From: Eledone cirrhosa
Lineage: Eukaryota
Direction of reading: 5' to 3'
Assembly (NCBI GenBank): GCA_964016885.1
Contig: OZ024742.1
Span: 292,082,001 to 292,146,000 of the forward strand
DNA length: 64,000 nucleotides
The notes below the pieces were generated by a model. That model searched no databases. It was not told where the DNA came from and was given only the letters and a program-made list of their open reading frames with translations. Positions 9,005-59,879 of this stretch are shown in pieces (position 1 is the first letter of the stretch; each line of letters begins with the position of its first letter). Both the position numbers and the translations under genes were made by a program.

Positions 9005-9392
9005 ATATAAAATCAAAAGATGGTTAAAAGAGTTCCATGTTTTTTATTATGTGCATTTCAAAAACAAATATCATCATGGGATGATATTTGCGTTCTCATC
9101 AGATAAAATAGGGAGACATGATATGAAGCTTAAAAAACACACTGTTAAATCAACACACTGCTCACAGGTGTTTTTTAAGCTTCATATCATGTCTCCCTAT
9201 TTTATCTGATGAGAACTCAAATATCATCCCATGATGATATTTGTTTTTGAAATGTGCATAATAAAATACATGGAACTCTTTTAACCATCTTTTGATTTTA
9301 TATTATTTATACTCCAGTCCTATAAACTGTTGAGTGCTACTTATCCGATATTTGCATTGCTTTATTGTGCTACAATAAAACTCACCTCATAC
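9005..9392 (+). mobile_element. Miniature non-coding fold-back element (PLE-like ends) with hammerhead motifs
   Basis: 136-bp inverted arms 9005-9140 / 9168-9303, 27-nt spacer, ~90-nt unpaired extension, (TA)n on both sides. Confidence 0.8.
9198..9268 (+). ncRNA. Type I hammerhead ribozyme motif (mirror copy 9040..9110 on minus strand)
   Basis: TATTTTAT-CTGATGA-[GAACTCAAATATCATC CCAT GATGATATTTGTTTTT]-GAAA-TGTGCA-TA-ATAAAATA: 8-bp stem I, intact core, 11-bp hairpin in stem II, near-palindromic stem III. Confidence 0.8.
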
Positions 9393-9490
9393 ATATATAT
9401 ATATATATGCATATATATATATATATATATATATATATATATATATTAAGAAAGTAAAACAAAGAAGCCTTCAATACATCAAAAGTCTTT

Positions 9491-9536
9491 ATTAGCCAAC
9501 AATGTTTCATCCTATTAAGGACTCATCAGGCCAATT
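9491..9536 (-). ncRNA. Minimal type I hammerhead motif
   Basis: Minus strand reads ATTGGC-CTGATGA-GTCC TTAATA GGAT-GAAA-CATTGTTG-GCTAAT; canonical core and stem II; stem III and cleavage site are irregular. Confidence 0.72.
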
Positions 9537-10121
9537 AAAACAACAAGAAGTAATGTCGGCAGATACAAGCCGGAAGCTCCGAAGAATATGGAGTGTACAT
9601 ACACTAAAGTATTGCAAGATTATGGGTAAAAATATATAATAAAAATAATAAAAATATATAATAAAAATTACTAAGGATGTATATAACATTAAGAACCATA
9701 TTACAAATATAGTCCAAAGCAAAAAAAACCTAGAGCTAAACAAAGGTGGTTATATAGATCAGGAATTATATATAATACAATGTAATATAATATATTATAC
9801 CTTTACCAATATTAAAATTACAATAAAAATCAAAAGGTACAATATGCATATGTATATATGTACGCACACGTACACACACATACACATACAACAATACACA
9901 TATCCATCTTCAACTGCACAAATTAAACCTTATTAAGAGTTTGAATATAAAAAGTTTGAATATAAAAATAAGCATGATAGGAATGAAAATAATAATAATA
10001 ATAATACTAATACATCTACCCAATATACATGAGGTAATAATATGATATAATTATAAGTATCACATATAATAAATAATGAACAATACAATTATATACTATA
10101 TAATATAATAGAATAGAATAG

Positions 10122-57427: not shown

Positions 57428-58809
57428 AAATTATGATTGAAAACTTTTAGATAAATATAGATACTTTAATACTTCTACACCCATATTTCTAATGAGAGAC
57501 ATTGCCTATAATTTTTATTAGTTTTGAAAATAATCAAGCATTTAGAGAGATCTACTAATGCAAATTTCTCACCGCAGTGATTAGAGCATAATAAAGCAAA
57601 ACACAGACCTAAGCGTTAAGCCTGTCACCCTCTCCCCTTCATCTTTCTATCATAGAACTAGGTGCCATTTCTGGCAGATTGGTATCAAAAGGGTTAGAGT
57701 GTATAGTTGCATAGAGTACCTAAGCAGCATATTAATAGAGTCATTAGAGTATTGGATAGAATATCTCGGGGGTATTTGTTCTGATTTTCTGTACATTTAA
57801 TTTAATTCCCACTGTGGTTGTCAATATTACATTTCATCCTTACATGAACGCAACTAACTACATTCACTAACTCACCTCACAATAAAAACTAATGAAATAA
57901 TTTCTTTTGTAAACCAGTCAATTGATTTATTTCAGTATGTAGCTAGTCTACAATTGATTTTAATGTCTTTTACAGACCTGTACTGATCAAGTAGAGGTTA
58001 TTGTACTATAAAGACAAGCACTGGTCAAACAACACTGACTATAGTGGACAGACCAGCACTGACCAGGAAGAAGTTATTCTGTTAGATTGAAAGATTGGTG
58101 TTAATTATTTTCAAACAGAGTTAAGAGGAATATCATGTGGACAGATCTATGGAAATTGAAACCTTTCTGAATCTCCTTCCTATTCTTATAAGCAAGATGG
58201 GATGGGCTTACTGTCCTGTTTGAGTTGTTAGTAGCATCTATTAAGTACTGACGTGGTCTGTGATGACCTAGCATGGAAAATGAATGTTAGATAATGATGA
58301 TGTATCTGAATTCTATATTTGTAATGTCCACCAACTATTCCATAATTTCTACTTAGAAAAAGCTGAGAAAAACATGAATGTCTTGAAATCACAGCAATGC
58401 TAGAGAGAATATAAGCTGTGTATCTGAATTTATGATACCTATTAAAACTAAAAGAATCCAATCAACTCTGATATATATTTATTGATCTTCAAAAGAAATT
58501 TCTTATGAATGCTTATTGATGTTTATTCAATGTTATCTCAAAAACTGGAAATTATATGTTTAATAATTGTGCAAAAATATTTTCCTCTAATTTGATGTTA
58601 AATTTCCAAAATTACTTTTTGTCAAAGTGGTACTCTTGGGTCTTGAATACTCATCCCCACTCCTACTTATTCATTTTTCAGATTTGTTCCAATCCCCCAA
58701 ATAATGTGTGTGTGAGTGGGGGTGGGGGGTGGGGGGAATACGTGGAGAAGTTAAAATAAGCAGGGATGGGGAATTAGTAATTTTCCTATGTTGTCTCCAT
58801 TGATTGGTA

Positions 58810-59066
58810 ATCTGGGACAAGAGCTGGGTCTACTGTTATGACCAAGAGACAGAGTGCCCAGTGAAAACATTCTGACTCCCCAACACCCAAGAAGGTCCAC
58901 TGGGAAGCTCATGATGATCCCATTCTTTGACAGCAAGGACATTATCCACATCCACTGGGTCCCACATGGCCAGACAGTCAACAAAGAGTATTATGTAGAG
59001 GTTTTGAGGCAGTTCAGTAAGAGATTTCGTCACAAGGGAACAGAACACTTCAAGTCTGGTTAGTGG
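58810..59066 (+). pseudogene. Mariner-family transposase fragment
   Basis: WVYCYDQET, then KLMMIPFFDSKDIIH..WVPHGQTVNKEYYVEVLRQF..RFRHK, the segment following the first catalytic Asp of mariner transposases. Confidence 0.85.
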
Positions 59067-59295
59067 CATGTGTGTCCCCCCAGTCTATGTCTGTGTTTAT
59101 GTCCTGTAACACACACATACATTTATACACACACACACACACACACACACACACACACACACACACACACACACACACACACACAAACACACACATATAT
59201 ATATATATATGTATATATATATATATATTTATTAAAATAGATTAAAGTTTAAGCAAAGAATCGCTGCTTTCACCCTTAACGGCATCTTCTGAAAC

Positions 59296-59879
59296 TGTAA
59301 AATACTCTTTTACTGGTTTCAGTAATTAGGCTGTCATTGTGGAGGGTCAAAGCAACACCAAATATCAGCCTGGAGCATATCAATGAATCGAAACAACAGA
59401 AGTAAGCTTTATTTCATCTTTATGTTTTTCTGTTTTTTCTGTTCAACTTCTAGCTGGCTCTTTGGATTTTAGTCTTCACGTTTATTATTATTACTATATA
59501 TATATATATATATAGGTGTGGATTGGCAGTATCGGTAGAGGGTCGGACGCCATACTTTCCAGCATAGTTACGTCCCTTTACGATCTGAGTTCAAATCCCA
59601 CCGAGGTTGACTTTGCCTTTCATCCTTACGGGGTCGATAAAATAAAGTACCAATAATACACTGGGTAATTGCTGGCCTTGTGCCTAAAGTAGAAACAATT
59701 ACTATATATATATATATATATATATATGTTGAACATAAAAAACATAAAAACATAAAGATGAAATAAAGCTTACTTCTGTTGTTTTGATTCATTGATACGC
59801 TCCAGGCTGATATTTTGTGTTGCTTTGACCCTCCACAATGACAGCCTAATTACTGAAACCAGTAAAAGAGTATTTTACA
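59296..59879. repeat. 152-bp inverted repeat (59296-59447 / 59728-59879) around (TA)n and a SINE
   Basis: Arms are reverse complements with scattered mismatches. Confidence 0.88.
59513..59697 (+). mobile_element. SINE family 1
   Basis: A and B boxes; ATTACTATATATA duplicated on both sides. Confidence 0.92.

Follow-up and report, generated by a model that had tools for sequence, protein, structure and literature searches.

Fold-back insertions in TA tracts of Eledone cirrhosa as probable truncated copies of Penelope-like elements

Penelope-like elements (PLEs) that encode an endonuclease are known to leave distinctive insertions. For the Penelope/Poseidon, Neptune, Nematis, and Hydra groups, the sections of Craig et al. 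2021 (PMC8557442) and Arkhipova et al. 2013 (PMC3846280) drawn on here describe an inverted 5' copy, a one-sided tail, a microsatellite target, and a hammerhead ribozyme in the 3' repeat; in PMC8557442 the inverted copy is 5'-truncated, the tail is 30–40 bp, and (TA)n tracts are the targets. The supplement of that paper includes Penelope-13_HM, which has both a sense and an antisense hammerhead and a preference for (TA)n. In addition, Cervera and de la Peña 2014 (PMC4209133) describe, in the part used here, dual minimal hammerheads on opposite strands, ~100–700 bp apart, that are probably truncated PLEs. A 64,000-nt stretch of Eledone cirrhosa DNA (GenBank assembly GCA_964016885.1, contig OZ024742.1, positions 292,082,001 to 292,146,000, forward strand; the window) contains five comparable fold-back loci, labelled A (9010–9392), B (25203–25350), C (44571–47390), D (48702–49762), and E (53014–53162). 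The class of insertion is already in print, since PMC8557442 and PMC4209133 describe the layout and the opposite-strand hammerhead pairs; the differences here are the length of helix II in D and tails of 76–135 nt in A, D, and E, set against 30–40 bp in the described elements. Also in contrast to those elements, only the terminal repeat remains of A, B, D, and E.

The five loci are probably separate, dead, 5'-truncated insertions of endonuclease-bearing PLEs from several families, in which the inverted arm was likely made anew at each insertion and not carried in by a mobile hairpin. The animal DNA of the window is AT-rich and crowded with repeats, including long interspersed nuclear element (LINE) copies with apurinic endonuclease and reverse transcriptase (RT), a hAT-type transposon, short interspersed nuclear element (SINE)-like repeats, and 48 merged (TA)n tracts. 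Inverted repeats are present in the sequence of all five loci, and alignment of the arms verified the shared layout proposed in an earlier, sequence-only reading of this DNA, i.e., inverted repeats with a one-sided extension. The arms are identical at 131/135 aligned positions in A (9010–9145 and 9164–9298), 48/48 in B (25241–25288 and 25303–25350), 482/498 in C (44571–45087 and 46851–47348), and 18/18 in E (53014–53031 and 53069–53086). In D, 48837–49131 matches 49267–49388 plus about 49572–49762, with 121/122 and 183/184 positions identical. Spacers measure 18 nt in A, 14 in B, 1763 in C, 135 in D, and 37 in E; the corresponding extensions are 94, 38, 42, 135, and 76 nt. All five have an inverted shortened copy and a one-sided tail at a microsatellite target. 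The (TA)n flanks claimed for both sides were borne out for A, C, D, and E; at B, the right end has only about four TA units rather than a long tract.

The features of element A are as follows.
9010–9145, minus strand: inverted tail-less copy of the terminal repeat, abutting the TA tract 8991–9009
9042–9108, minus strand: mirror hammerhead in the inverted arm, with one stem III mismatch; predicted cut after 9048
9146–9163, no strand assigned: 18-nt spacer, from the arm alignment
9164–9298, plus strand: tailed arm, from the arm alignment
9198–9268, plus strand: type I hammerhead fold with stem I of 8 bp, a stem II region of 36 nt, and a stem III that is palindromic; cleavage is predicted after 9260
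9299–9392, plus strand: one-sided extension (tail) of 94 nt, ending at the TA tract 9393–9446

Directly behind the right TA tract of A lies a solo PLE-like end on the minus strand (9447–9560) with decayed stems, for which no inverted arm was found; it contains the only match to the Rfam Hammerhead_1 model in the window (9491–9535; 26.5 bits, below the gathering score of 34).

Elements B and E are the smallest of the five.
25203–25240, no strand assigned: one-sided extension of B, 38 nt, beside the TA tract 25176–25202
25241–25350, no strand assigned: 48-bp perfect arms and 14-nt spacer of B; no hammerhead, PLE origin by layout only
53014–53162, no strand assigned: 18-bp perfect arms, 37-nt spacer, and 76-nt extension of E, flanked by TA tracts; without a hammerhead, assigned to PLEs by layout only

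The single other copy of the B end in the window, at 49844–49899 beside the right TA tract of D, has the spacer and one arm in common with B, beyond which its sequence runs on without folding back. Element E is the weakest case and is not a chance arrangement, because a perfect 14-nt inverted copy was found in 0 of 124,000 shuffled TA-tract neighborhoods.

Fold-backs in the TA tracts of the window are of more than one kind. The symmetric terminal inverted repeats (TIRs) of a class II miniature inverted-repeat transposable element (MITE) are absent from all five loci, each having an extension of 38–135 nt on one side, and a symmetric fold-back at 42617–42846 has no extension. The latter is MITE-like, lying inside a TA tract with 96-bp TIRs (89/96 identical), a 38-nt center, and no tail. 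A small element with 32-bp inverted ends (44335–44560) lies directly left of C, and we take it to resemble a mariner-type MITE. Directly left of B, in a TA tract, is a decayed hAT-type transposon (22957–25175) with inverted ends and matches to DUF4371 and Dimer_Tnp_hAT. When the edges of TA tracts were surveyed, 8 of 62 nonsimple edges had an inverted copy within 3.2 kb, a count that includes the symmetric tail-less element and the hAT-type element; the survey failed to pick up loci B and D. The sequence-only reading had extended its range to 59879, where the inverted repeat (59296–59447 and 59728–59879) falls outside the layout and was rejected as a member, having a TA tract between its arms. 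Two TA tracts, a SINE-like copy, and an extension of 47 nt lie inside this 152-bp repeat (147/152 identical), whose outer borders are identical; either it is a TIR element, or one tract holds a short element in two copies.

Element C is the coding member of the group and is a dead, 5'-truncated, frameshifted copy with an inverted pseudo-long terminal repeat (pLTR) and a 42-nt tail around one open reading frame (ORF).
44571–45087, minus strand: inverted tail-less pLTR copy, beside the TA tract 44557–44569
44688–44726, minus strand: hammerhead of the inverted arm, core GAGA instead of GAAA
45083–46806, plus strand: 5'-truncated PLE ORF with RT, CX4CxxC linker, and GIY-YIG with CCHH; frameshift near 45240–45260
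46851–47348, plus strand: 3' pLTR arm, from the arm alignment
47193–47231, plus strand: hammerhead of the 3' pLTR with stem I of 5 bp, stem II of 12 nt with a GAAA loop, core GAGA, palindromic stem III, and U at the cleavage position
47349–47390, plus strand: 42-nt tail, before the TA tract 47391–47455

The ORF matches Pfam RVT_1 (below cutoff) and GIY-YIG (above cutoff), with the endonuclease at the C terminus. It spans positions 149–720 of a 721-position profile of 120 relatives, so that ~148 positions are absent at its start. There are 606 homologues of the protein, and the named relatives come from bivalve molluscs and bivalve-symbiont assemblies; searches with the single C protein gave no confirmed relatives in metagenomes and none among viral contigs. 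Linker and CCHH residues (C396, C401, and C404; C439, C442, H461, and H478) are invariant in 33 sequences, and because of this the CX2–5CxxC linker and CCHH definition in PMC8557442 would place C in the Neptune/Nematis type, a grouping by motif that does not choose between the two clades. The proposal that the loci are truncated PLE products of several families is thus shown for C by its ORF. For A and D, the architecture and polarity of the hammerheads and the nature of the ends point to it strongly; for B and E, the only pointer is the layout.

A set of 125 loci that encode relatives of the C protein in other organisms, most of them short contigs, provided a comparison. Of these, 48 (L078–L125) are PLE-like RT matches in bacterial genome or metagenome-assembled genome records, likely animal host DNA binned into those assemblies. 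Two related PLEs carry identical hammerheads in direct-tandem pLTRs (L001:58 and L001:3757; L070:645 and L070:4954), an arrangement that would permit dimer cleavage.

Elements A, C, and D all carry hammerhead folds. Scanning the window for type I motifs, with a long stem II permitted, gave six matches, in both arms of A, C, and D, where 25 dinucleotide shuffles gave a mean of 0.08–0.16 and a maximum of one motif; a narrower earlier scan (stem II ≤25 nt, unbroken stem III) had found none. The earlier claim of a hammerhead core in each arm of the three loci with the longest arms therefore holds for the folds, which are present in all six arms, and fails for the core of C. There, the GAAA directly after CUGAAGA is the loop of the 12-nt stem II, as in Penelope-3_HM in the table of PMC8557442. 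The core position itself reads GAGA in both arms, a change predicted to impair the C ribozymes. In A, C, and D, the hammerhead is type I with a short palindromic helix III and lies on the sense strand of the 3' repeat; the tailed-arm copy points toward the tail, and in C it is on the same strand as the coding sequence. Hammerhead matches occur at 12 of the 125 related loci. Eleven of them lie on the sense strand, where stem III is a palindrome and stem II measures 3–19 nt (two of the 11 are copies on one contig). The twelfth, a minus-strand match with a 70-nt stem II (L106), was set aside as probably due to chance.

The D hammerheads have a stem I of 7–9 bp, a stem II region of 95–101 nt, and a perfect 8-nt palindrome as stem III. 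The minimal metazoan PLE hammerheads in PMC4209133 share the type I topology, the short palindromic helix III suited to dimers, and a dispersed distribution; the stem II regions of A (36 nt) and D contrast with the 3–19 nt of the 11 related loci. In the table of File S2 of PMC8557442, the longest stem II rows are by our count about 50 nt, making the D stem II, at about twice that length, an unusual feature; the core search described in that paper allowed a spacer of 7–17 nt. Within the open-access literature, a search found no longer helix II in PLE hammerheads, nor miniature fold-back PLEs beyond the papers cited here. A further family of ends lies on the minus strand at 55165–55250, 59229–59296, and 26977–27033. 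Two of these adjoin TA tracts, and two copies have type I folds with a 5-bp stem III and mutated CUGANGA cores; the 59229 copy starts only about 5 nt upstream of its core.

Element D is the locus for which other copies could be followed in sequencing reads.
48702–48836, minus strand: tail of 135 nt, ending at the TA tract 48679–48701
48837–49131, minus strand: tailed arm; molecule ends pile up at 48837–48840
48891–49022, minus strand: type I hammerhead fold with stem I of 9 bp, a stem II region of 95 nt, and a palindromic stem III; predicted cut after 48900
49132–49266, minus strand: spacer, the family's own upstream sequence, multicopy, with no detectable PLE coding signal
49267–49762, plus strand: inverted tail-less arm, interrupted by a later insertion and ending at the TA tract 49763–49843
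49389–49571, plus strand: SINE-like dispersed repeat inside the right arm, not part of D; many window copies at 82–95%, 11-bp target duplication
49572–49705, plus strand: mirror hammerhead of the inverted arm, with a stem II region of 101 nt; predicted cut after 49698

The ~185-bp dispersed repeat that splits the right arm, with its 11-bp target duplication, was absent from the sequence-only reading, and no tRNA was called in it. Reads were mapped to 48400–49388, i.e., the unique flank, tail, tailed arm, spacer, and first 122 nt of the inverted arm, using 4 of 10 listed runs at a likeness of 80 and a share of 1%, a filter below which single-copy joints fall. The reads come from organisms A, B, and C (labels separate from those of the elements), of which A may be the source sample of the window, with raw restriction site–associated DNA (RAD) reads from another sample of organism A. 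The RAD run samples few loci, and the loose ends and joints described are those listed (15 joints), with 649 loose ends and 7 joints lying outside the listing.

The D family is clearly very abundant. In the contigs of organism A, summed depth is ~10 on the first flank bins, 50,000–810,000 on the D arm, and 27,000–38,000 on the spacer, where depth is not to be equated with copy number. The family was also found in organisms B and C, without coverage of 49159–49257 in organism B. Both outer ends of D recur beside TA: TA repeats adjoin the tail end in 776 RAD reads (agreement 0.96) and the tail-less end in 218 reads (0.96), and RAD molecules terminate at the border of arm and tail (236/629 and 184/552). 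The inner junction, in these data, does not look like a recurring feature of the family. At that point 65 of 111 plus-strand molecules stop at 49260, and RAD depth falls from ~274 to 34 in the junction bin, three covered positions explaining most of the remaining 34. A contig of organism C matches 49105–49270 with three differences and then departs from the fold-back for 65 letters, its orientation being taken from the contig record and its loose end. No opposite-strand joint at the spacer is among the 15 listed. Contigs of other D copies cross from arm into spacer at 49131/49132, which identifies the spacer as the family's own upstream sequence, and family depth declines from the hammerhead toward it. 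One direct joint does recur, leading from 49235 back to 49001 (a 235-nt go-back), at a depth of 500 in X1, with 13 reads in X8, and in one contig in X6 (organism A accounts for two of these runs, organism C for the third); the resulting tandem unit lacks GAAA and contains just half of a hammerhead core. Three contigs of organism B join both halves of the D core across an unread middle, and depth there is low on distal stem II, a hint of a conserved core around a variable helix II.

A plausible route for these insertions can be drawn from work on the Poseidon element PAc, which, in the in vitro experiments reported by Frangieh et al. 2024 (PMC11167929), cleaves AT-rich DNA on both strands, has two internal RT start sites that delimit a tail, and does not need hammerhead cleavage for in vitro insertion. 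The endonuclease would nick both strands of a (TA)n tract, and reverse transcription would begin at two sites in the pLTR RNA, with the distance between the sites giving the tail. Two cDNAs, one per nick and start site, would stop early and be joined head to head, leaving (TA)n, a tail-less inverted copy, a tailed copy, and (TA)n. The reach of each cDNA would set the arm and spacer lengths. The presence of a hammerhead on each strand would then simply follow from the duplication, and within the hairpin the motif is predicted to be inactive. The two start sites of PAc match the two recurrent ends of D; PAc belongs to a different clade, and the formation of an inverted arm lies outside the results of PMC11167929 considered here. 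The variation of spacers from 14 to 1763 nt across the loci lends weak support, as the loci come from different families.

Several results weigh against an origin by truncated PLE insertion. None of the eight window ends matched the 125 related loci by BLASTN, leaving A, B, D, and E without a link to a coding parent, and a profile of the C clade found no C-terminal coding signal in the A, D, and E pieces. Three short motifs, one each from A, C, and D, had no match in the Naiad, Chlamys, and Hydra consensus files. The covariance-model check called for in the sequence-only reading went against it, since none of the six motifs matched the Rfam hammerhead model (narrower runs covered both A arms and the tailed C and D arms); the best Rfam matches of the arms were microRNA models, all below gathering scores, reflecting the hairpins. 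Elements B and E gave no hammerhead in strict or relaxed scans, and the pieces may be too short to contain one. The tails of A (94 nt), D (135 nt), and E (76 nt) exceed the published range. An inverted repeat bracketing the ORF beside TA was found at only 1 of the 125 related loci (L064), most of which are short contigs, and the copy-level junction data cover D only, from one read mapping. Two leads on parentage were rejected: a "PKLN" in the D spacer was no better than chance as an ORF end (4 of 40 shuffles reached its score), and a Naiad half-core origin for A or D gave 0 matches to 12-nt motifs in the supplement, where line breaks can hide matches. Naiad elements also differ in having an N-terminal endonuclease, C-terminal in C, and similarity to Naiad ends was not seen with the motifs or, for the Naiad_Ovul 3' end, by eye.

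The sequence-only reading had favored a different biology, in which the entire hairpin would be transcribed, would process itself on both strands, and would be reinserted as a hairpin, in the manner of a retrozyme. In its favor, the hammerhead folds are intact in A and D, the D family is very abundant, and arms are 97–100% identical over aligned positions. Animal non-LTR retrozymes are similarly short and noncoding, with type I hammerheads and a link to PLE pLTRs. However, a retrozyme consists of units repeated directly in tandem, each needing its own hammerhead, and gives rise to circular RNAs, as set out in the sections of PMC7229834 and bioRxiv 10.64898/2026.07.22.740005 drawn on here, whereas the arms here are inverted pairs. 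Release of a unit takes two cuts, and each strand of the hammerhead-bearing fold-backs offers one hammerhead, so neither a monomer nor a circle would be excised; the only recurrent tandem joint is that of the 235-nt unit. That single hammerhead lies in the second arm to be transcribed on either strand, after its complement. Modelled by itself, the motif pairs stem I with a probability of 0.96 (A) or 0.91 (D), falling to 0.0 in the whole fold-back. Folding that is compatible with the hammerhead has to be forced at a cost of 83 kcal/mol for A and 150 for D when the whole element is present, versus 3 and 8 in the sense half, where the equilibrium stem I probability is low too (0.01 or less). The hammerhead is therefore predicted to be sequestered within the long hairpin. 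Nor, for D and B, does a fixed structure appear to propagate: coverage collapses at the D junction, a relative continues past it, and the sole B relative in the window is unfolded. The self-processing unit is thus very improbable.

The remaining alternatives concern the parent, the membership of B and E, and the way the inverted arm is made. No coding parent was found for the short elements, and the A and D families may be either noncoding PLE partners or the ends of coding copies outside this sequence. A trans-mobilized noncoding partner as the origin of D and/or A, a SINE-like parasite made out of a pLTR whose fold-back forms at insertion, would share the mechanism above and differ only in the parent; it is the less likely of the two accounts. 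The D spacer is multicopy with flat depth over 49159–49257 and yet has no coding signal, the head-to-tail 235-nt joint recurs in two organisms, and nonautonomous PLE derivatives are described for Chlamydomonas in PMC8557442 and proposed for animal retrozymes in bioRxiv 10.64898/2026.07.22.740005. However, 135 nt can be plain 3' untranslated region, which together with the tail is about 580 nt in C; the coding test used the profile of the C clade only; the organism C contig shows the D family continuing upstream; and half a core is all that the tandem unit contains. About as likely is the idea that B and E, though not A, C, and D, are unrelated fold-backs, whether MITE remnants or local template-switch duplications at TA tracts. 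Both lack a hammerhead and an ORF, and symmetric TIR elements do occur in TA tracts of the window (42617–42846, 44335–44560, and 22957–25175), but B and E differ from those in their one-sided extensions and the B end recurs beside another TA tract without folding back. Less likely again is that the same elements gained the inverted arm when an antisense template primed itself, and not from two primers at a doubly nicked target, a route that PMC3846280 puts forward for PLEs of rotifers on the strength of palindromes at the inverted junctions, self-priming being the proposal there; recurrent TA-abutting ends at two fixed D sites fit two initiation sites, as found in vitro for PAc, without discriminating directly between the routes. 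Separate truncated insertions of several PLE families therefore remain the preferred explanation of the five loci.

Other coding remnants lie between these insertions. A 286-aa ORF fragment on the minus strand (37311–38171) resembles the end of a PLE from another clade, with linker and GIY-YIG (weak profile match, E 0.01; no Pfam match), and neither a hammerhead nor an inverted arm was found beside it. A LINE ORF at 39165–42287 (1040 aa) has an apurinic endonuclease, an RT, and a PHD-finger match downstream of the RT core, with many partial copies across the window.

Recognizing these truncated insertions is useful for repeat annotation, as the stubs resemble MITEs or microRNA hairpins and are prone to misclassification. 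Short copies that are abundant, with both outer ends fixed and the inner junction varying, would also be good material for learning how the inverted repeats of PLEs form. A bolder and rather unlikely extension is that the D family, and perhaps A, is an abundant noncoding PLE partner whose hammerhead, with a giant helix II of ~100 nt and a core kept across related species, cleaves as a dimer. If the hammerhead with a helix II of 95–101 nt does cleave, it would widen the size range of natural type I hammerheads and standard descriptors would undercount them. If such a giant-helix-II class is real, descriptors with a short spacer may have missed the ribozyme in PLE families that are recorded as having none.

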